Positions 26,993 to 44,396 of a stretch of DNA of 50,667 nucleotides are shown here, in pieces. The notes beneath the pieces are model-generated. The model was given only the letters and a program-made list of their open reading frames with translations, ran no database searches and had not been told where the DNA came from. The number at the start of each line of letters is the position of its first letter. Position 1 is the stretch's first letter. The stretch is from Candidatus Heimdallarchaeota archaeon (lineage in GTDB: Archaea; Asgardarchaeota; Heimdallarchaeia; Heimdallarchaeales; Kariarchaeaceae). Made by a program: the position numbers and the translations under genes. Location: the NCBI GenBank assembly GCA_027077875.1, contig JALWRB010000326.1, positions 1 through 50,667 of the forward strand, given 5' to 3'.

Positions 26993-27082
26993 CTGAAATT
27001 CTGCACGGAGAGCGATGTGACAGAGTGCAATATAATTTTTCTTACAAATAAGATTTACATACTCTGGTAAAAAAGAAGATTA

Positions 27083-27946
27083 ATGACTTCCGGTTTTAGT
27101 TTAAACGGTAGACAAAGGAGGAGGAACAGTAACCCGATTGGACTGGCTATCGGCCTGTTGATCATCGGGATCATCCTGTTCTTCGTCTCGATTTTCATGA
27201 TCATGGCAGGTGCACAGAGTAACTCATGGGCGGCAACCGATGGCATCGTCACATCCACCTCTATCCGCGAGAAGTACGACTCGGACGACGGTGACTACAC
27301 GTACTATCCTGAGATCACCTACTCTTTCCAAGTTGATGGCAAGACATATACTGGAGATAGATGGGATCCAACGGGAATACAGTCCGGTTCAAGCATTCGT
27401 AGCTCAGCACAGAACAAGATAGACAAATATCCAGTGGGAAGTACAGTGACTGTCTACTATGATCCAAACAATCCGAACAAAAATGCCCTTACCAAGGGTG
27501 TTAACGGTATCGCCATCATCATGTTGGTCATCAGCATCATCATGGTGGTCATCGGGATCGTCATCTTGGCAGTGCTGGGTAAGATCCTGAGCTTCCTCTT
27601 CAAAGGTAGATCGAACAGAGGCTTCATGGGTAGATCACCTACCTACACTGGTCAAAGTCCCAATTACTCGGACGGGCAGGTGGGAGCTAGTCAGACAACA
27701 CCCAATCCCGAAACAGCAGCTTGGTTTGGGGAGGAAGTGAGTCCAACAACTAGTCAGTCGGAATTGACAAATGAGCCAGTCTCCAATTCGACGTCCTCAA
27801 GCCCTCCAGTCTCAGATACGTATGTAGAATCAGCACCAGCTGCACCTTCAGGCGGTCTGTTCATGAGCAAGAAAAACTGCCCTAGCTGCGGTCATCCGAA
27901 TGAAGTGACCGACAAGTTCTGTGGAAATTGTGGAACTCAGATTTAG
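27083..27946 (+). CDS. DUF3592-like membrane protein with C-terminal zinc ribbon
   Basis: TM, then W...GIV...YYPEITYSFQVDGKTY...YPVGSTVTVYYDPNNP, a second TM, an S/T/P linker and CPSCG...CGNCG. Confidence 0.8.
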   Translation: MTSGFSLNGRQRRRNSNPIGLAIGLLIIGIILFFVSIFMIMAGAQSNSWAATDGIVTSTSIREKYDSDDGDYTYYPEITYSFQVDGKTYTGDRWDPTGIQSGSSIRSSAQNKIDKYPVGSTVTVYYDPNNPNKNALTKGVNGIAIIMLVISIIMVVIGIVILAVLGKILSFLFKGRSNRGFMGRSPTYTGQSPNYSDGQVGASQTTPNPETAAWFGEEVSPTTSQSELTNEPVSNSTSSSPPVSDTYVESAPAAPSGGLFMSKKNCPSCGHPNEVTDKFCGNCGTQI

Positions 27947-28923
27947 ATCGAAACCTTCTGAATTGATTATTCTAATAATTAATATTTATTATCTTTTATT
28001 ATTCAGAAAATACTGGTATATTCAAAATTTTCATAATATTCAAGACAATTAATTGATTTATTCATAATATGAGATTATCTTCTTTCTAACGTTTTATAAT
28101 GAGTAATTCTAATACACCAATCAGATTTTTAATTAATTTTTTTAAAGGCTCCGCCCTAACGTTAATACATATAGGTTTACCATTAGCTATGATAAAGCTA
28201 TCCTAAAAATAAGTGAATTATAAGTACGATTTTTTAAAATTATATTATAGGTATTTAGCATTATTTTTGTTCAATGTAGTGTAATAAGCAGATACATAAT
28301 TTGAAGATGCAAAATATTAATTTAGATATTTAATTTATTATTTAGTCATTAATTACAATAATAATCTTATTAATAGCATTATAATAACTAATAATTACAT
28401 TTACAAACATGATATGGATAATTACTTACAGGTTAGTTCTGAAATAATTTTGTATAGATTCAGTATGTATATCCAATATAATTTACAATAAATTGTAATT
28501 ATAATAGAGATTATTCATTCATTAAAAGAATTAGAGCTAAAATAACATATAATTTCAGATAATTGAGGGTAGTGAGCTTATTACATCGATCAAAATGGAG
28601 ATATTTCGTTAGATATATATTATATTATAATTTATTTTGATAATATGTTTAGCATATTATAGAAATTATACCGAATATTAATTATAAAATGAGAATTATA
28701 TTGGATTAATTTCATATTTTTAATATATTGTCAAAATAAATAGTAATACATACGAATTAATCAGAAACTCCACCGATTAGGTAGCTGAAATCCATTATAA
28801 AGATAATAGAACCTTCCTTTTCAAATATTTCCCACAATTTCACCCATAATATATAAACTTCAAGATCTACCCCAGACACCTCGCCCACATCATCGAGAAG
28901 ATTCTCCTCCACTAGAATGTCAA
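27947..28923. other. About 1-kb extremely AT-rich ORF-free region between convergent genes
   Basis: No ORF of 60 aa or more in six frames. Counted examples: 7/60 G+C at 28321-28380 and 8/60 at 28621-28680. Confidence 0.85.
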
Positions 28924-29709
28924 TCAAGCAAGTCCATACATATTGTCGTTACGTAAAATGAATCCCTCATCAATCAAATCGTCGATCAACTTGGTCAATT
29001 TTCCCTCACTAACTCCAATGACCCCGGCAAGCTCAACTGCATTCATTGAACCATTGAGCAAATGACGGAGGATTGCTCCGCGATAGTATCGATCAGTTAG
29101 TTCGAATGGCTTATCGGATGGTTTTGCTGAACGTCTCCGTGTCCGGTGAGCCGAGCCATAGTCCATGAGTGCGTTGTGGTAATCCCTCGACCTTCCGAGC
29201 GGGAGCAGTTGATCTGCAACACTCTGAACGCGGCTCAATGGCCAATCACTTTCGATGAATCCATGCATGAGGAAGACATTGCGAACGTTGGTGTCTACAG
29301 CTGCGAAATCACTGTTGAACGCAAAGATAAGAATAGATCTAGATGTGTATGGACCTATACCCTTCAGACACATTAGCTCCTCAGGTGATTGAGGAAATTC
29401 ACCGATTTCAACAATTTGCTGGGCTGCTTCCCTTAGCCATTTTGCTCTCCTGTTGTACCCCAAACCGATCCATTCAGCAAGTACATCCTTGAGTTCTGAA
29501 GATGCCAGAGCCTCCACAGATGGGAATTTATCGAGGAATGAGAGGTATTTAGGGACAACTCTGCTCACCTGTGTCTGTTGGAGCATGAACTCGGAGACCA
29601 TAATGCGATAGGGATCAGTGGTCTTTCTCCACGGGAAGTCCCGACGGTTCTGTCTCCACCATCCAAACAGCATGCTGTGGAATTTTTCAGGAGAGGGTTT
29701 TACGTCCAC
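28924..29709 (-). CDS. mutY: A/G-specific adenine glycosylase (HhH-GPD), variant lacking the Fe-S motif, with a C-terminal HTH-like tail
   Basis: RDFPWR, SEFMLQQT, WIGLGYNRRA, LKGIGPYT, VDTNV and ALMDYG motifs. No Cys cluster follows LMDYG. Confidence 0.85.
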   Translation of the reverse strand: MDVKPSPEKFHSMLFGWWRQNRRDFPWRKTTDPYRIMVSEFMLQQTQVSRVVPKYLSFLDKFPSVEALASSELKDVLAEWIGLGYNRRAKWLREAAQQIVEIGEFPQSPEELMCLKGIGPYTSRSILIFAFNSDFAAVDTNVRNVFLMHGFIESDWPLSRVQSVADQLLPLGRSRDYHNALMDYGSAHRTRRRSAKPSDKPFELTDRYYRGAILRHLLNGSMNAVELAGVIGVSEGKLTKLIDDLIDEGFILRNDNMYGLA

Positions 29710-29748
29710 GATGGAAAGTGAAGAAATGTCTTAAAGTGCCTGTCGGTG

Positions 29749-30993
29749 CTACTCTGCAACCTGCGAGGGCTTGATGGAGAATACCGCGAAGAGCAGAATA
29801 CCAAGAACGACAAGAGCTGCGAGATCGAATGCCAGTCCGAATCCGAGGCTGTCGACGATGTATCCCGCACCCAACGGTCCAAGGATCCTTCCGAGAGATC
29901 CGACACTGGAGTTTATTCCAAGCCCGCCACCCTGCATATCTTTGGGGATTCTCCGGGACAGGGCTGAGTTCAGAGGAGGGTTGATGAGCCCAATTCCAAT
30001 CGCCAGAGGAGCCAAGGCGAGCCCGAAGAGCCAAGGGTTCGAGGTCATTCTTGACGAAGTGACGAAGCCGAGTGCGACGACAAGTAACCCGAGGAGGATG
30101 GTCTTCTCCTCGCCAAGTTTGTCGACAATTCTTCCGATGAGTCCACCTTGGACGATGATTCCCCACACACCTACATAGAGAAAGAACAGTCCGAGGACAT
30201 ATGGTTCTGCACCAGGTATGATGACCTCCTTAATGTAGAGACTGAACACCGCTTCGAACCCCGAGAAGGTATAGGTGTTGATCCCGAAGATTAGGATCAG
30301 GGCGAAGACGCCCGGAAAAGCGAAGAATCCGAAGAATCGCTGTATTGATTGAACGACAGATCCACGAGGTACTCTTTCGCCTTTCTGAAGAGTCTCAGGT
30401 AGGTTTCTGAATGCTATGTAGAGATTCACAAGTGAGAGAAAAGCTGCGAAGACCGAGGGGTAGAAGTGGACCGCCACCTCTCCAGGTATTGATGCGAAGA
30501 GCCCACCTATTGCAGGTCCGAGGGTGAATCCCAGCCCGAAAGCTGCACCAAGGAGCCCGAATCTTTTGGCCCGTTTCTCGGGTGGAGTGACATCTGCGAT
30601 ATACGCTCTGGCGGTGGGAAGAGTGGCTGCAGTGAAGAATCCTGCGATGGCTCTGGACGCCACGATGAGCGAGTAGTCCGAGGTGAGCCCGAAGCTCAGG
30701 AAGGCAAGAACTGATCCTCCTACACCGATGAGGATGACTGGCCGTCTACCGATTCTATCCGATATTCTTCCCCAAATAGGAGAGAATATGAACTGTGCGA
30801 TGGAATATGCGGAGATAATCCACCCGAGTCTGATTGCCTGCTCCGATTCAGGGAACTGCTCCACCAGATAGGGCAGTACAGGAAGTATGATACCAAAGCC
30901 GAGAAGGTCGATGAACACCGCCATGATCACAGGCAGGAATGATCCTGCAGGGGCGTTCTCACCGCCATTTATTGGTTCAGGGTATTCCGACAT
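29749..30993 (-). CDS. MFS drug:H+ antiporter (TetA/DHA1 family)
   Basis: FIDLLGFGIILPVLP, motif A GRISDRIGRRP, AYIADVT and motif C GLGFTLGPAIGG; 12 TMs. Confidence 0.92.
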   Translation of the reverse strand: MSEYPEPINGGENAPAGSFLPVIMAVFIDLLGFGIILPVLPYLVEQFPESEQAIRLGWIISAYSIAQFIFSPIWGRISDRIGRRPVILIGVGGSVLAFLSFGLTSDYSLIVASRAIAGFFTAATLPTARAYIADVTPPEKRAKRFGLLGAAFGLGFTLGPAIGGLFASIPGEVAVHFYPSVFAAFLSLVNLYIAFRNLPETLQKGERVPRGSVVQSIQRFFGFFAFPGVFALILIFGINTYTFSGFEAVFSLYIKEVIIPGAEPYVLGLFFLYVGVWGIIVQGGLIGRIVDKLGEEKTILLGLLVVALGFVTSSRMTSNPWLFGLALAPLAIGIGLINPPLNSALSRRIPKDMQGGGLGINSSVGSLGRILGPLGAGYIVDSLGFGLAFDLAALVVLGILLFAVFSIKPSQVAE

Positions 30994-31056
30994 AGACCGA
31001 AGTCGCTGCTGATGTTTATACGGCTGACGGTCGTGACAAGGTCACCCCGCCACGTC

Positions 31057-31509
31057 TCAGGGTAGGTAGTATCGCTTACCCCTATTGACGAGTATCCCCG
31101 CCTGCACCATCGCGTCGAGGTTCTTCTTTGCCGTTGAGGATGTCTTCTGCCTTGCCTGCATGAGTGAAATCCCACTTCCCTGAGACTCCTTGACGAGTTC
31201 GTAGATTGTCCTGGAGTTTCTCCTCTGTCGCTCGGTCCTCAGTCCATCGAGGAATTCTTGGAATCTATCGGGTTCGAACTGATTATGTTGCACGGTCACG
31301 GGGAACCGGGAGGTGCTTTGGAGGATGTCGAGGATTGCGTCGAGTTTCTGCTCAATGGAGCCAGTCTCAGAGGTCCCTTCGAGCGTCCTGTGAGCTGTGA
31401 TCAGGTAGTCCTTGAGGGTCATTTGCCGCCGGGCAGCTGCGTCCTTAATGGCGTCATAGTCCTCGTCCGAGAGGTAGAAGCTGATCGACTTGCTGTGCTT
31501 TCTGGCCAC
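31057..31509 (-). CDS. Ribbon-helix-helix protein with a short coiled coil and a C-terminal winged-helix-like domain
   Basis: KSISFYLSDEDYDAIKDAAARRQMTLKDYL (RHH strand-helix-helix), IEQKLDAILDILQ, and GISLMQA...KKNLDAMVQAGILVNRGKRYYL (wHTH-like). TTTATA lies 22-27 nt upstream of the GTG. Confidence 0.75.
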   Translation of the reverse strand: MARKHSKSISFYLSDEDYDAIKDAAARRQMTLKDYLITAHRTLEGTSETGSIEQKLDAILDILQSTSRFPVTVQHNQFEPDRFQEFLDGLRTERQRRNSRTIYELVKESQGSGISLMQARQKTSSTAKKNLDAMVQAGILVNRGKRYYLP

Positions 31510-31543
31510 GACAAACCTGCTCGTTTGTGATATAAAGTTTACC

Positions 31544-31744
31544 TATGTCATGACATACTGTCGCGTCACAAATTTACCAATACAGTGCACCTTGGATCAT
31601 TGAAAATTAATTTCAGCAAATTATGTCATGACACAATGATGACAGAACCACACATATGAGATGACAATGACATGACATTCCATAAACAGGACATGACAAT
31701 GACGCGACAGTCATGACATCGACATGACACCGACGCGACAGTCA
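31544..31744. repeat. Array of nine 10-bp nGWCRYGWCA elements (iteron/operator-like) upstream of the RHH gene
   Basis: Copies start at 31546, 31559, 31624, 31668, 31689, 31700, 31709, 31720 and 31731. Includes the perfect palindrome TATGTCATGACATA (31544-31557) and a 24-bp duplication with 31-bp period (31690-31713 vs 31721-31744, 2 mismatches). Confidence 0.85.
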
Positions 31745-32242
31745 CCGTACAGAGGCTGTAGACGGAGGATTGGAAGAGATAAGCATAATTCCGCCTAGTC
31801 AATAGGAGAGAAGACACCTACAGAAGACTGCGGAAAATGGATAGGCACAGGAGAAATTAGAGACAGAATAGAGGTACGGGAGAGCAGAGCATATTTAGGA
31901 CGATTGTGACAACATTGGGAATCCTCTGAGACCAAATGGTATCTGGACGACACACCCCATCGATCGCATACCACACTAATAGCCGAACTCCGAAAAGACC
32001 CTATATTCAGCCTTACAGCATGTGAAGAGGCAAATTCCGGAGGTTCAATATACTTTCTTCGTACATGTTGCACAACTGTCCAAATATCGAAGTAGATGAT
32101 ACTACACGGACTGAGATTGCAAGAGAGCAGTTCAGTATTGACACCTACCACCCCGATTGGCGCCAAAAGGGACAGAGGGTAAGAATCCACGAGCATCAAA
32201 TCTCAGTCAAGGGTAAAGTAAGACGAATCCGGAGTTCATGCT

Positions 32243-33190
32243 CTATTGAAGCTTGGGGATTACAGACTCACTGAACGTCCTCATGGAGGAGACCTCCTCG
32301 CCCTTGGGAAACATGAAGATGAAGTCGGTTATTCCGAGCTCCGCGTATGCCCGTAGCTTCTCCACAATTTCATCCGTCGTCCCATGCAGCGCCCCGGCCA
32401 TCCTCTGCTCAAGCTGTTCCATGCTGAAGCCCCTGCGATCACATATCTCTTCCCACGCCCGCTTCTTCTCCTGCTCGTCCCTGTAGATCCTCGTCCACAC
32501 ACCGTAGCTCTTCCGCAGCGTCGAGGGATCCCGGTCGATCCGGTCGCAGAACTCATCGATCCTCTGCAGCTTTTCCTGGTAGACATCGGGAGCAAACGAC
32601 CATGCGATGTTGATCCCATCGGCGTACTCCGCGGCAAGCCTGAGCATCTTGGGCTTGGCCTCCATGGTGCCCACCCATATCGGAGGGTGCGGATCCTGCA
32701 GTGGCTTGGGGAAGGATATGGCGTCGTTCAGCTGGTAGTACTTCCCACTGTAATTCACCCGTTCCTCCGTCCAGAGTTTGCGGATGACATTGATGCCCTC
32801 AGCTAGCTGTGCGATCCTTGTACCCGCAGAGGGGAAGGGGATACCGTAGGCGTTGTACTCGATCTCTTTCCATCCTGCGCCGTAGCCGAATTCCACCCGC
32901 CCCCCTGAGAAGTGATCGAGGCTGGCGATCTGCTTAGCGAGAACCGCAGGATGCCTGTAGGAGTTGCAAAAGACAAGTGATCCCAACCTGAGGGTTGTCG
33001 TCTTGGAGGCGGCCGCCATCATGGCGGAGAAGCACTCATAGGAGATGAGGTCAGTGGAGTCCTTGGTCATCATGAAGTGATCCGAGAACCATGCGGTGCT
33101 GAAGTCGCTCTGCTCGGCGGCGTTGCAGATATCAAAGATCTGCTGGAAGTCGTATCCGAACTGCGGCTCTATCTGTACTCCGAAATTCAC
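32243..33190 (-). CDS. LLM-class (probably F420-dependent) oxidoreductase
   Basis: WFSDHF, RLGSLVFCNSYRHPAVLAK, LDHFSGGRVEFGYGAGW and PKPLQDPHPPIWVG motifs. GTG 33190 preferred over 33376. Confidence 0.9.
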   Translation of the reverse strand: MNFGVQIEPQFGYDFQQIFDICNAAEQSDFSTAWFSDHFMMTKDSTDLISYECFSAMMAAASKTTTLRLGSLVFCNSYRHPAVLAKQIASLDHFSGGRVEFGYGAGWKEIEYNAYGIPFPSAGTRIAQLAEGINVIRKLWTEERVNYSGKYYQLNDAISFPKPLQDPHPPIWVGTMEAKPKMLRLAAEYADGINIAWSFAPDVYQEKLQRIDEFCDRIDRDPSTLRKSYGVWTRIYRDEQEKKRAWEEICDRRGFSMEQLEQRMAGALHGTTDEIVEKLRAYAELGITDFIFMFPKGEEVSSMRTFSESVIPKLQ

Positions 33191-33593
33191 AGATCTACCT
33201 GACCTTCCTCGTTGAAAACCCTTTTGGGAGCGGTAAATTTGCAGGACCACGGTCAATATGTGCTGTTGACTCTGCACGTATGAGCGAAGATTACCCGTCA
33301 GCTTACTACCAAAGGGTCGTTGGAAAAAGAGACCCGCGGCTGAGGAATACAAGGATAAGTCCTGAGAAGCTAACATTCATTATTGATGACGTCATCTGGA
33401 TTCGGCCGACGAGCAGGTATTCGTAAGACTGGGACAATTGCACACTTTATCATAAAACCGTATAGACGTGAGCTGCTAGACTTATCAGGAGAAGAGCTAC
33501 AGAAGATAAAATCCGAATTTCGGAAATTTTGCTATAGCAACGGATAGTTTTGAACAAAGTTTAAATTTGATTAAAGATACATAACTGCATAAA

Positions 33594-34745
33594 ATGAGGA
33601 TTGGTCAAAAAAATATACCGTTCTATTATCTAATTGAAGCGTTGATCCCCCTGCAGATTGTATTCATCATTTACCTCACTTCATTAGGTATTGCGGGACT
33701 CACAGATTTCAACACCGCATCTACAATGATGATAAGGTTTCTAGCTGTTGTCATCCCAGTTGATGTGACTATCATATCGAGGATGGGGATTGCAGATATC
33801 AGATCCAAGCTCCTTATTCATCTGACCCTAATCACGTTATTGGGGACGACGCAGGCAGCGATGCTTGTGCCCAACGAGGGTAGCTTATTCCCAGTTTCCA
33901 ATGACCTACCTGCGTTTGCTATACTCGCTGCAATGAACACCATAATGGCAGTTAGCACCATCTTCGCCGTATTTGACACCATCTCCCCATTGTCCCGTGC
34001 AATTCAGCGGGTGAATGCAGAGGTGAAGAGAGGTAACCTTGATGCCCGGATCACCGAGGAGAATATCCTGAAGGACAACCTCCTATCTCCAAGTGCCGTA
34101 GCGGTGAACGACATCCTCGACGAGTTGAGCTCGCTGGTGCAGACGCTGGCACGGAACGCGGAGACGACTTCTACGAACATGGAGACATTGGGGGCCAATG
34201 TGGAGGAGATCAGTGCATCGGTTGAGGAGATCACGGCATCGACGCAGAACATGGCCCAAGGAGCCTCCGAGCAGACGGATATCCTCGAGACCATCTATCG
34301 CCGTCAGCAGGAGCTTTCGGAGGTGGTGAATCGGATTGTAGGTCAGGTCTTCGAGAACACCAAGGTCATACAGGACATAGCCCTCAAGACGAACATCCTC
34401 GCCCTTAACGCGGGTATAGAGGCTTCAAGGGCAGGTGATTATGGCAGGGGTTTCTCCATCGTCGCAGCGAACATCAGGTCCCTCTCGGAATCTACGAACG
34501 AGTCGATCAATGTCATAAGGGACACCACCGCCACCATCGCCGAGCAGCTGGAGAGCTATGTCTCCCAGCTCTCCGCGGATATTGAGAACGTGTCAGTGGT
34601 CTCGGAGGAGACTGCTGCCTCCGCCCAGGAGGTTGTGGCGACAATGGAAGAGATCAGCTCCAATATCTCACAGCTCAGTGAGATGGCTACTGATTTCTCC
34701 AAGATCGTGGAAAAGAGTTCTGGTCTTCTCTCCAAGTACAGATAG
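33594..34745 (+). CDS. Methyl-accepting chemotaxis protein (TMs + HAMP + shortened signalling domain)
   Basis: KTNILALNAGIEASRAGDYGRGFSIVAANIRSLS hairpin-tip signature. Confidence 0.92.
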   Translation: MRIGQKNIPFYYLIEALIPLQIVFIIYLTSLGIAGLTDFNTASTMMIRFLAVVIPVDVTIISRMGIADIRSKLLIHLTLITLLGTTQAAMLVPNEGSLFPVSNDLPAFAILAAMNTIMAVSTIFAVFDTISPLSRAIQRVNAEVKRGNLDARITEENILKDNLLSPSAVAVNDILDELSSLVQTLARNAETTSTNMETLGANVEEISASVEEITASTQNMAQGASEQTDILETIYRRQQELSEVVNRIVGQVFENTKVIQDIALKTNILALNAGIEASRAGDYGRGFSIVAANIRSLSESTNESINVIRDTTATIAEQLESYVSQLSADIENVSVVSEETAASAQEVVATMEEISSNISQLSEMATDFSKIVEKSSGLLSKYR

Positions 34746-41871: not shown

Positions 41872-41994
41872 GAAGGAGAGTTCATCAGGCTCTTCTAAAC
41901 CACCGCTTGCAACCAAAAGCCGCAAAACCCCAACAACCAGCCAACCAACAGACATCGTCGGCCAAGTCGCTCATGGTTTTGATGACTCTCCTTC
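41872..41994 (+). ncRNA. Candidate ~123-nt structured small RNA (5'/3' fold-back stem, C/A-rich loop)
   Basis: GAAGGAGAGTTCATCA (41872-41887) pairs with TGATGACTCTCCTTC (41980-41994): 15 bp with one bulge. An inner AAACCA/TGGTTT helix follows. Upstream TATA and downstream pyrimidine run. Confidence 0.5.
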
Positions 41995-42506
41995 CCTCTC
42001 ACCTATCGTTTTACTCAATTTCTCTGATCTTCAGATCCTTGTCGTCTAAACGACAAAATACTGAGTAATTTCTCGACAATTTATAGTGGATTCCGCGCTA
42101 TATAATTATTTGCTCATTTCCTTGAATTTTCTACCCTCACTACGTCTTAGTCCAATTTTTCGAATATAATTAAGCGATTTTATACAGCATATTCTCTAAT
42201 ATTTTCATAAATATAATTCCGATAATAGTATCAGTTTAATTAAAAATAATTGTCTGGATAAATTATTGAAATATTATGTATTTTCCTAGATGTATGAAAT
42301 TATTCGATTATAGCATTTTTATTTCTTATATCACCCATTATCCATTATAGAAAAGATAGATACTGATATTTTTAGAGTAATTGTTGGAGATAATTTGATT
42401 CTTTTTCTTATTCCAAGATTTATTACTTCAACCCGATACAAGACCACTTAGTGAATGAGCAAAACCATCGCATCGCTTTTGTACAGACATGACAGTGTAA
42501 GATTAG

Positions 42507-44396
42507 ATGAGTTGCCTATCGTGTGGAACTGAACCGTCTTCCGAGCAACCAGCGTATTGCACAAGATGCTTTATACCAGTGCCTCTCCCAAGGACAAGGT
42601 CGGAGGATGAGACACTAAGAACCCGGAAGAGGAACAGGATGAATCTCGTCGACGAGATCGTCCGAAGGACACCTGCGTCCATCGAGTTTCTCCAAGGGCT
42701 GGGACTCGAACAGCTTCCCCTAAAGGATCTTGCTGCATCGCTCAGTGCCATCGGACAGGAGAAGCTCAACTTCATGAGCTCTGAGCATTCATGGACAGAG
42801 GCGCAGACGTACCTCGATCTGGGCTATGAGCTCGCACAGAGATTGGACTCCGACAGGTTGAAGGTCATCACTGCACAGAGACTTGCCATGCAACTTATCC
42901 GAGGGGGCTGGTTGGAGGAGGCGAGGTCTATTCTCCCAGATCCGAAGACCTTAGGTGAGAACCTGAAAGAGTACAGAGAGTCAGAGGAACTCGTCAGGGC
43001 GTTCACAGATCTCGAAACGGCCGCGGAGCTAGCCCTTGTCGACGCCATGGAGGGAAAGGAGTGGCAGAGAGAGAAGCTAAACACGGCGGTTCTGCACCTC
43101 TGGGACCTGATGAAGCCAGACATCACAGAGCTTATCCTGAAGGGAGGTGGAAAGAGCTTCTACCTTGGTTCCGAGGACAGGAGCCACAAAGTACCCCGAT
43201 TGGACAAGCTGGCCTTTGTGCAGTCGATACTCCTGCAGGCAGAGATTGCATCATCGAGGGAGCATCTCTCAGACCTCGCGGTGGAGGCACTACAGGTGTT
43301 GGGGAGGATGCTGATCATCATGGCAGAGATGGCACCAAGGGACGATCCGCTGTTCTACGGGGCGATAATCCGTGAGTACTTCCAACACTTCAACGGTATG
43401 TTCTGGCACAGGGAGGCACTGTACGAGAACGACGCAGATCTCGTGCAGACGACTATCGTCCAAGCACACTCCATCGTTATCCAGTGGAGTAAGTTGATCC
43501 CCCCGCAGTCGTGGATGGAGGCGAGACCATCGAGGTTCATTGAAGTCTTCTACAGGGCTTCTCGGTGGGCAGAGCAGCTGTCACCGCGCTATTTCCTCAA
43601 CCGCTGGATCAGCGCTGCGTCCTCTGACGTAAGACCCTACCTTCACTACTTCGACGCTGAGGCCCTCCTCAATGACGGGCAGAAGGAAGAGGGTGAGCGA
43701 ATTCTGCTCCAAGTGCTAGAGAGGGAGGACATAGATCCGTCACTCAAGGAGGCAGCAAGGACATTACTCCAGCGAGCTTCCTTGGAGAGCATAGGTGTGT
43801 TCATTGGCAATCCCTACCTCTCCCGACTAGAGAGGCTCGAGGTCATACTGGAGGTTCCGAGCGGAGGGAACATTGGGGATTACGCACGGCTGGAGGAATT
43901 GATGGGAATAGAGTTACCCAGTCCTTCGAACCTCATGCGGATGGAGTTCAAACCAGTGAAGGACTGGTTGGGGCGTGAGCTGGCAGTATCAGGTACGTCG
44001 CTGGAGAACCTTATCTACCGCACACCAGAGACCACTCGCCAGTACCTCAACCAGACGATAATCATCGCGGGAAGCTCATACTACCGTGACGTGCACTGGT
44101 GGACCCCCTTCAGCGCAGTGGGGAAGATGGTCAACGGCCTGAGGACTGACATCGTGGTCCTCAGGATCAAGTTCAATAAAGACATCCTCTCCCTGCTCTT
44201 CGAGGCAGAGAAGATCTCGTTGGATGAACGGGACAACCATGTCTTCATTGGCACTCCAGACTTCTACCACCTCACAGGGATAGACTGGACACCTCATCCT
44301 CCTGAGGAGGTTATTGAGGCCCTAGTCAATCTTCTAGAGGGCATCTCAATGCACGAGCAACTGGACATCTACACGCTCAAGATCGACCTACCCTAG
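42507..44396 (+). CDS. Large hypothetical protein: N-terminal zinc ribbon plus helical (TPR-like) region
   Basis: CLSCG...CTRC at the N-terminus, amphipathic helical repeats and host-like codon usage. Confidence 0.7.
   Translation: MSCLSCGTEPSSEQPAYCTRCFIPVPLPRTRSEDETLRTRKRNRMNLVDEIVRRTPASIEFLQGLGLEQLPLKDLAASLSAIGQEKLNFMSSEHSWTEAQTYLDLGYELAQRLDSDRLKVITAQRLAMQLIRGGWLEEARSILPDPKTLGENLKEYRESEELVRAFTDLETAAELALVDAMEGKEWQREKLNTAVLHLWDLMKPDITELILKGGGKSFYLGSEDRSHKVPRLDKLAFVQSILLQAEIASSREHLSDLAVEALQVLGRMLIIMAEMAPRDDPLFYGAIIREYFQHFNGMFWHREALYENDADLVQTTIVQAHSIVIQWSKLIPPQSWMEARPSRFIEVFYRASRWAEQLSPRYFLNRWISAASSDVRPYLHYFDAEALLNDGQKEEGERILLQVLEREDIDPSLKEAARTLLQRASLESIGVFIGNPYLSRLERLEVILEVPSGGNIGDYARLEELMGIELPSPSNLMRMEFKPVKDWLGRELAVSGTSLENLIYRTPETTRQYLNQTIIIAGSSYYRDVHWWTPFSAVGKMVNGLRTDIVVLRIKFNKDILSLLFEAEKISLDERDNHVFIGTPDFYHLTGIDWTPHPPEEVIEALVNLLEGISMHEQLDIYTLKIDLP

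Follow-up and report, generated by a model that had tools for sequence, protein, structure and literature searches.

The stretch of DNA analysed here, a contig of 50,667 nucleotides from a Candidatus Heimdallarchaeota archaeon (JALWRB010000326.1 of assembly GCA_027077875.1; hereafter the window), carries a gene for a protein of 150 amino acids that is predicted to join a domain of the ribbon-helix-helix (RHH) type to a winged helix, and an array of short repeated sites directly upstream of that gene. Gene and array together make up a module of protein and DNA that is real and conserved; the protein is most likely a transcription factor that regulates itself, from a new family specific to the lineage. 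Judged from the sequence, the product is probably a dedicated DNA-binding protein that cooperatively occupies the sites at its own promoter and controls its own gene. New are the pairing of RHH and winged helix in a single chain, the confinement of the protein to a few Heimdallarchaeota-like genomes, and a family in which every paralog has a repeat bank of its own.

The gene occupies positions 31057 to 31509 on the reverse strand, stop codon included, as read from the open reading frame (ORF) list, the homolog alignment and the structure model. Its GTG start is supported by the aligned homologs, all of which begin MARK or MVRK, and a full-length alignment with eight homologs contains 20 invariant columns. 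Upstream lies a gene-free spacer of 733 bp, with the site array within its first 240 bp. The pattern GWCRYGWCA occurs 23 times in the window, against 8.33 ± 3.29 times in 100 shuffled versions (maximum 15; none of the 100 reached 23), and 14 of the 23 matches fall between 31546 and 31740. Taken together they amount to nine 8-bp cores, which start at 31547, 31560, 31625, 31669, 31690, 31701, 31710, 31721 and 31732, that is, at -45, -58, -123, -167, -188, -199, -208, -219 and -230 relative to the start codon. The initial annotation of this locus had counted nine 10-mers in less than 200 bp upstream of the gene, and the motif scan confirmed them, in the form TGWCRYGWCA, as it did the spacings of the distal six (11, 11, 9, 11 and 21 bp from the far end inwards).

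A TATA-like box, CTTTATAT in the sense of the gene and the reverse complement of ATATAAAG, was read from the sequence at 31530 to 31537 on the reverse strand, 21–28 nt before the start codon. Its position implies a leaderless or near-leaderless transcript, the start of which we infer from the sequence only. Six nucleotides from this putative box lies the perfect 14-bp palindrome TATGTCATGACATA (31544 to 31557), found by repeat search and containing site 1 (10-mer at 31546 to 31555), just as had been described. Site 2, TGTCGCGTCA, is CG-centred (31559 to 31568; motif scan and repeat search), and its extended 12-mer form in the gene sense, TGACGCGACAGT, is identical in the orthologous locus L017 introduced below. 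The motif scan then places site 3, TGTCATGACA, at 31624 to 31633 and site 4, TGACATGACA, at 31668 to 31677, with degenerate copies preceding site 4 in 31634 to 31667 according to Tandem Repeats Finder (TRF). Sites 5–9 are five 10-mers within 31689 to 31740, their cores separated by 11, 9, 11 and 11 bp. The repeat search also showed a higher-order unit of about 31–32 bp, in three copies from 31658, 31690 and 31721 (31658 to 31744 overall). The 31-bp duplication noted at the outset is thus present, 31690–31713 being 92% identical to 31721–31744 over 24 nt, and the third copy (31658–31681) shows 79% identity. A scan for sigma-70 promoters and terminators gave chance-level results and does not apply to an archaeon.

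One concern with any repeat array is that it was created during assembly. Contigs assembled from other runs cross this one: a 475-nt contig (X2) with 8 differences, and contigs from X4 and X5 with 81 and 95. Since these contigs span the array, and related arrays occur in five other assemblies, the array is not an assembly artefact. The strain contigs also show how the array varies. Among the differences listed for 31510–31745 there are 17 substitutions, 15 of them in spacers and none in the 8-bp cores, and the chance of randomly missing the 72 core bases is about 0.002 by our own arithmetic. The other two substitutions change the flank base of sites 5 and 9, to the consensus T in each case. 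The listed insertions and deletions within the array pair up and compensate one another, so that spacing is kept. Among the differences listed, this avoidance of the cores is footprint-like and suggestive.

The window locus was compared with five orthologous loci: a metagenome contig (L017) whose protein is 49% identical to that of the window, and four loci of the sister genus (L002–L005; 28–38% identity in the alignment). Over all six loci, identities in the protein alignment run from 28 to 53%. Upstream arrays in homologs had been proposed in the initial annotation as the test of its own idea, and all six loci have one. The same core occurs nine times upstream of the window gene, six times in L017, and five, four, six and three times in L002, L003, L004 and L005 (genome G010), respectively, always between -258 and -41, with the proximal core at -41 to -63. 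In the loci read, the proximal site abuts a TATA-like box or sits 10–25 bp upstream of one. Within these loci of 3.1–3.5 kb the only further match to the motif lies just downstream of the window gene. L017 shares the gene order of the window (luciferase-like oxidoreductase, RHH-winged-helix gene, major facilitator superfamily (MFS) transporter). When the two spacers were aligned, the distal 500 bp remained unaligned and the array, its 12-mer and the TTTATA of the TATA-like box aligned. About 400 bp upstream of the ortholog, at approximately 1005–1075, L017 also has a separate tandem repeat with units like CAGTGAGATACT, which is absent from the window.

The genome scan that had been suggested for other clusters was run, and the array proved to be the only one. 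The window genome (3.94 Mb in 539 contigs, 80% complete) contains 300 matches to GWCRYGWCA, and the array is its sole 250-bp stretch with at least four. Chains of at least three cores no more than 60 bp apart were found only upstream of the gene in all five genomes that have it; other core pairs in these genomes are isolated or part of a coding tandem repeat. In five related genomes without the gene, the sole chain is an unrelated 39-bp tandem repeat. G010, which is 93% complete, has 89 scattered matches and a single cluster, again upstream of the gene. Avoidance of the motif across the window genome is mild (593 cores against 760 expected under an order-3 Markov model, and 43 10-mers against 66), and the matches in G010 compare with 159 for the reversed pattern; we conclude nothing from these counts.

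Pooling 33 sites gave the consensus aTGWCRYGWCAt, with AT at the centre of 25, GC of five and GT or AC of three; the flanking T/A is present in 82% of the symmetrised cases. The degenerate pattern is its own reverse complement and therefore suits a two-fold-symmetric dimer. It is equally readable as two tandem TGWCA pentamers, because the W positions agree in 25 of the 33 sites. That agreement is also what a functionless microsatellite of the form (ATGAC)n, made by neutral slippage and since degenerated, would give, and TRF, which reports periods of 5 and 11 in the array, does describe 31656–31729 as a period-5 array of 14.2 copies with 68% matches. Such an origin is nevertheless extremely improbable, given that two genera, with proteins of only about 30–38% identity, keep the array in the same position, that non-repetitive spacers of 5–130 bp separate the sites, and that the cores are unchanged among the strain differences listed while the spacers vary.

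The constancy of the motif among orthologs of 30–50% identity would equally be expected of the site of a conserved, unrelated factor. The array might then be bound by that factor, or be a shared upstream element, with the RHH-winged-helix gene merely regulated through it. We regard this as very unlikely. The array is present only where the gene is present, and both putative DNA-reading elements of the protein are conserved among the orthologs: the N-terminal strand reads S-S/T-Y in most of them (I-S-Y in L005), and T123, S125, A127 and L131 are kept in the third helix of the winged helix. A paralogous group with a distinct repeat of its own argues further against a shared factor.

The sister genus encodes two paralogous groups, B and C, which share the N-terminal RHH with the orthologs (group A). 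Group B proteins have the full RHH-plus-winged-helix architecture in about 180–230 amino acids, and the family profile aligns to them end to end (E 4e-13 to 6e-8). At all four group B loci (L010, L008, L012 and L024) the 300 bp before the gene contain the hexamer GACTAA, with copy numbers of 4, 8, 5 and 6. The repeat takes the form T/GACTAAA, with the proximal copy at -55 to -81. GACTAA occurs only once elsewhere in 13 kb, and none of the six group A genes has it upstream. The N-terminal strand differs as well, reading M-G-Y in group B against the S-S/T-Y of most of group A, at positions that we take, from an alignment to Arc, to face the DNA. Orthologs thus keep the motif and paralogs have their own, as one would expect were each protein to bind the repeats before its own gene. 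A group B gene is also present in the window genome, truncated by the end of contig C392.

Group C proteins combine the RHH with an acidic C-terminal half, and two or three GAGTAYYC-like palindromes can be seen by eye upstream of their genes. With at least three paralogous groups in the sister genus, each with its own repeats, the whole looks like a transcription-factor family and not a centromere. In two genomes the group C gene lies directly upstream of, and co-directional with, a gene of the EAP30/Vps22-36 family (endosomal sorting complex required for transport II, ESCRT-II), at L009 292–1677 (G008:C207; Pfam E 2e-15) and L011 1477–2926 (G011:C315; E 1.8e-11); its neighbours in G010 are different. 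The pairing recalls the control of division genes by RHH proteins in other archaea.

The initial annotation had described the protein as an RHH, a short coiled coil and a winged-helix-like domain, and the order of RHH, short helix and winged helix holds as a prediction. An AlphaFold monomer model built on an alignment of nine sequences (mean predicted local distance difference test score, pLDDT, 77.3) shows an N-terminal strand region followed by helices 15–27 and 32–45, and the predicted RHH domain spans about residues 5–45 (31375 to 31497, reverse strand). A central amphipathic helix at residues 52–65 (31315 to 31356, reverse strand), seen in both the monomer and the dimer model, is followed by a low-confidence linker (residues 66–78; pLDDT below 50). 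The C-terminal domain, residues 80–150 (31060 to 31272, reverse strand), is modelled as three main helices and a beta-hairpin wing, the hallmark of a winged helix, with helices at 80–88, 93–108, 116–122 and 127–136 and strands at 141–143 and 146–148; the last three helices and the two strands have pLDDT 84–91. Structural alignment of residues 78–150 with VIA-align returned 50 winged-helix chains with Z scores from 9.5 to 7.4, the best being 9j89_D (root mean square deviation 1.2 over 59 residues). The Z-alpha domain of ZBP1 was at the top with 9.5, the winged-helix domain of an archaeal AAA+ ATPase followed at 9.1 and ordinary regulators at 8.8–8.2. As the top rows are tied within one Z unit, the winged-helix subfamily cannot be named.

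Profile matches to the N-terminal domain are sub-threshold. The NikA-like Pfam family PF21983 matches residues 3–38 of the window protein with E 3.4e-5 and 24.4 bits, below its 27-bit cut-off; it matches five of nine family members at E ≤ 0.01, and a precomputed match is recorded for three of four homologs. NCBIfam NF041418 reached 13.4 bits (E 0.051) against a cut-off of 90, and NCBIfam offered nothing usable. Pfam had no match to the C-terminal part (residues 80–150), and there was no PHROG match. A sequence search of the PDB matched HP0222 (1x93) at E 0.053, the other match, to a designed repeat protein, being spurious. When the family profile was compared with solved structures, no SegB- or HpaB-like proteins were found, and Foldseek gave no PDB match at E ≤ 0.001; its weak rows mixed winged-helix regulators with the RHH antitoxins AtaR and KacA (E 0.2–0.3). 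The best score in the ESM Atlas was 0.88, below the 0.9 level of a lead.

As a homodimer, the protein scored 0.42 against 0.14 for the best control. Of proteins solved as same-chain pairs, 20 of 30 reach the mark used for this score, as does one of the 23 solved as single chains. Agreement between runs covered at least 73% of contacts, and partner pLDDT was at least 72. The predicted contacts pair residues 10:10, 9:11 and 8:11 and involve helices 17–24 and 31–44, and residues 52, 55, 56, 59 and 63 touch across the predicted dimer. The model thus has the strand-helix-helix order, the intertwined dimer and the two-stranded antiparallel ribbon of an RHH protein, as a prediction only. The ribbon spans residues 5–15, leaving only about six residues before it.

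Relatives of the protein are few. Among 5.8 billion clustered proteins, those of similar length included four relatives, at 95, 82, 51 and 49% identity, and a profile search of 1.84 billion representatives returned 33 proteins at E ≤ 0.001, nine of them at E ≤ 1e-10. The gene is present in five of 400 genomes of the phylum and two of 85 genera; within its family it is found in two of six genera, including all four genomes of the sister genus, and was not found in seven other genomes that are 63–94% complete. A search of genome contigs with the window protein gave no relative, and the window genome holds no second copy of the gene. The claim that this archaeal module is undescribed is also supported: no curated family in Pfam, NCBIfam or PHROGs names the protein, a search of full-text literature (supplements excluded) found nothing relevant on the domain combination, and none of the papers that a search on Asgard archaea and RHH proteins listed describes the family, judged by title or abstract.

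Taken together, these observations suggest the following working model of autoregulation. The protein would dimerise via its N-terminal RHH, and each monomer would carry a winged helix on a helix and a flexible linker; with the RHH dimer itself, this would give three potential DNA-reading heads per dimer. The presumed target is the 10-bp two-fold-symmetric motif aTGWCRYGWCAt, with one or two proximal copies immediately before the B recognition element (BRE) and TATA box and a distal bank 120–230 bp upstream. Cooperative filling of this bank could control transcription of the gene, perhaps by looping, or by a filament, that connects the distal bank with the proximal sites. Binding of the motif by this protein, the head that would do so and the sign of the regulation are the parts of the model that we infer; archaeal sites upstream of BRE/TATA fit either repression or activation. 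A few further promoters with single sites may likewise be under its control.

Outside the array the window genome contains 38 full 10-mers, six of them outside ORFs against about four expected from the 11% non-ORF fraction. Four of these six lie 24–53 bp before an ORF start (G000 C507:1991, C350:1520, C406:2556 and C208:1849), three of them beside a TATA-like run. By eye, the four ORFs look like an ATP-binding cassette ATPase, a nicotinamide-nucleotide adenylyltransferase, a protein of no known kind and a YciI-like protein of small size. Such single promoter 10-mers hint, on their sequence context, at a small regulon. Nearer by, a 9-of-10 match (GGTCGTGACA) stands at 31029–31038 in the 63-bp gap between the RHH and MFS genes, about 8 nt upstream of the TATA-like GTATAAAC. 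The MFS gene was considered as a conserved target and rejected, the match at 31030–31038 having no counterpart in L017.

Several points weigh against self-regulation. No output is obvious for a factor whose sites cluster nowhere but at its own promoter; the evidence for a regulon is thin because the non-ORF 10-mers are near expectation, and the adjacent MFS gene failed as a target. Nine sites exceed the needs of simple autoregulation, and sites within one locus arise partly by duplication and are not independent counts. The sparing of the cores holds among the strain differences listed and is not complete evidence. On the protein side, the Pfam match falls below its cut-off, and the dimer result is a likeness and not a proof, because many RHH dimers have already been solved.

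The surplus of sites is one of the features that speak for a centromere-like or chromosome-organising site, coated by the protein and served by a motor or tether encoded elsewhere. The array is a single cluster per genome of many short repeats adjoining a gene for an RHH protein, it does so at all six orthologous loci, it has a 31-bp higher-order unit, and archaeal RHH centromere binders are known, namely SegB and HpaB (PMC13722703 for HpaB). Its helical phasing points the same way at the window locus: over about 185 bp the nine cores give R 0.85 at a period of 10.8 bp, equalled by 0.4% of 5000 random placements (p 0.004), and the distal six give R 0.96 at 10.4–10.5 bp. The original proposal of sites on one face of the DNA therefore stands for the window, but not for the other five loci, where phasing is not significant (p 0.13–0.995). 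We consider a centromere unlikely. G010 manages with three sites, the RHH begins at about residue 7 with no N-terminal tail before it, sister-genus paralogs have their own repeats, and the gene was found in only two of the six genera of its family and not in the seven other family genomes searched (63–94% complete). Moreover, no ParA-, ParM- or TubZ-like protein was found in a Pfam scan of ten neighbours in the window and ten in G010, in agreement with the initial annotation, which had seen no adjacent motor. That annotation had left the choice between a partition site and an autoregulatory switch undecided; the switch is now favoured, and the centromere-like alternative has lost ground on the tail, the lack of a ParA-like operon, the phasing confined to one locus and the paralog repeats.

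A related and unlikely possibility goes beyond a self-regulating switch. One dimer per 31-bp unit of three 10-mers (AT-, CG- and AT-centred) could build a nucleoprotein body that marks or tethers a chromosomal landmark, with partners elsewhere, near an island of about 1 kb with 16–23% G+C that lies 0–2.2 kb away in two genera and is the most extreme island in the window genome. Such a body might have a role in chromosome organisation, segregation or replication control.

The island in the window is a gene-free stretch of 978 bp with 22.6% G+C (27947–28923), between a DUF3592/zinc-ribbon gene and an HhH-GPD gene, at a distance of 2.1 kb downstream from the RHH gene; among 16 low-G+C stretches in the 3.94-Mb assembly none is longer or lower in G+C. 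Its counterpart in the second genus, at L013 10899–11953 (G010:C2), is a gene-free stretch of 1056 bp with 16.4% G+C between the ortholog and an HhH-GPD gene, so the combination of RHH gene, extreme AT-rich island and HhH-GPD gene recurs. The two islands have only composition in common (best blastn match 25 nt at 92%) and contain weak inverted repeats only. Rfam gave nothing at E ≤ 1 for 27000–34000, and a search of the window found no tRNA. The contigs of L003 and L004 start 1.4 kb upstream of the gene with 25–30% G+C, and the window has a milder low-G+C patch at 41977–42525 (30% over 549 bp), just upstream of an ORF of 629 amino acids (42507–44396). In all five genomes checked, the orc1/cdc6 genes are on other contigs than the RHH gene, and no comparably extreme AT-rich island lies beside them; in G010 the lowest 400-bp G+C is 0.24–0.26 around orc1/cdc6 against 0.12–0.17 in the island beside the gene. 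These comparisons speak neither for nor against the idea of a replication origin here.

The neighbourhood otherwise looks like ordinary chromosome. In the window it includes an aldehyde:ferredoxin oxidoreductase, a ferredoxin, the HhH-GPD glycosylase, the MFS transporter, the luciferase-like oxidoreductase, a chemoreceptor and a hybrid histidine kinase, and in G010 UvrA, ClpB, a Ras-family GTPase and HhH-GPD. The gene for this Ras-family small GTPase (L013 9492–10061, G010:C2; Pfam E 1.2e-28) lies divergently beside the array of the ortholog. Directly downstream of the gene is the MFS transporter in the window and, by eye, in L017; in L002–L004 it is a convergent radical S-adenosylmethionine gene that looks MoaA-like by eye, and in G010 a non-coding stretch of about 1 kb. 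Within the upstream spacer of the window, an ORF of 134 amino acids with a TTG start (31795–32199) is probably no gene, because the spacer fails to align with L017 and 31869–31993 is replaced by 126 other letters in the X4 and X5 contigs.

These neighbours bear on whether the locus could be left over from a mobile element. The protein would then be a relaxosome accessory protein of the NikA/MbpA kind whose repeat resembles an oriT, a copy-control or partition repressor of a plasmid, or an RHH antitoxin. The best RHH profile matches, PF21983 and NF041418, are indeed mobilisation proteins, and AtaR and KacA among the Foldseek rows are antitoxins, yet we hold such an origin to be highly improbable. 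Every profile match is below cut-off, and the neighbours scanned in the window and G010 include no relaxase, replication protein or toxin. The gene order with luciferase-like oxidoreductase and MFS transporter is common to L017, and HhH-GPD is near the gene in two genera; no relative was found in 2.9 million viral contigs and the PHROGs were likewise silent. Membership of the NikA/MbpA/MobA group was rejected on the profile scores and the missing relaxase, and antitoxin membership (ParD, CopG-like, AtaR) on the finding that no toxin gene lies immediately downstream in the window, L017, L002–L004 or G010. As a defining feature of each was looked for and found wanting, the protein belongs to none of the partition, relaxosome and antitoxin families.

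For Heimdallarchaeota-like archaea, which are more often than any other group placed beside the eukaryotes, there is hardly any experimental knowledge of how genes are regulated or chromosomes handled. The module is a compact protein-DNA pair of 150 amino acids and 200 bp. Its motif is clear, the GACTAA repeats of group B supply a natural control, and its domain boundaries are predicted. It could be studied in vitro without culturing the organism, and could show how two domains joined in a single chain, an RHH and a winged helix, divide the reading of DNA between them. Should the array be more than an operator, it would be a first handle on chromosome landmarks in this lineage; should the protein be an autoregulator only, it would be a neat but ordinary addition to the RHH repertoire.

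Among known systems, omega (inc18 plasmids), ParG (TP228) and ParR (R1, pB171) are RHH repressors and centromere binders. Their genes reside on plasmids together with that of a partition NTPase; in the proteins the RHH follows an N-terminal tail, and it is the sole DNA-binding domain. The window protein resembles them in that an RHH dimer, as predicted here, faces an array of 7–11-bp repeats, direct or inverted, beside its own promoter, an arrangement that is cooperative in those systems. Unlike them, it is chromosomal, has no NTPase nearby, places the RHH at its very N-terminus and follows it with a winged helix. MetJ binds 8-bp metboxes, two Arc dimers sit about 11 bp apart, and neighbouring dimers touch on tandem boxes. 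Short two-fold-symmetric boxes in tandem are thus shared with MetJ and Arc/CopG, but those proteins are single-domain and use two to five boxes, whereas here there are up to nine over 190 bp, and a winged helix in addition. Winged helices of the PhoB/OmpR type read TGTCA-containing direct repeats head to tail with an 11-bp period (the Pho box). The likeness is a resemblance only, and the window protein has no receiver domain, but it makes the pentamer reading of the array plausible.

Archaeal RHH proteins offer a further comparison. SegB of the Sulfolobales, according to the part of the source available, is encoded in segAB operons and binds a centromeric sequence adjoining its own operon. HpaB of Haloferax has about 150 amino acids, the same size as the window protein; its gene comes directly after the ParA-like hpaA in an operon of two genes, and contact with the ATPase is predicted to be made by the N-terminus of HpaB (PMC13722703, available part). 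Relative to what these sources describe for SegB and HpaB, the window gene does not share a two-gene operon with any ParA-like gene and its product has no N-terminal tail. The small archaeal RHH factor aCcr1 binds a 9-bp palindromic box in promoters, and with aCcr1 and CdrS the window protein shares a chromosomal location and, as a putative target, a palindromic promoter box, which in theirs has about 9 bp (PMC9976878, available part). Compared by architecture, those factors are single-domain, in contrast to the 150 amino acids with a winged helix found here. As far as the same part of that source shows, the present sites also differ from theirs in being upstream of the TATA-like box, many, and essentially confined to the protein's own gene. 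By analogy, then, the module is closest in working principle to omega, ParG, ParR, MetJ and Arc, RHH repressors by which arrays of short repeats are coated, and to small archaeal RHH factors with palindromic boxes such as aCcr1.

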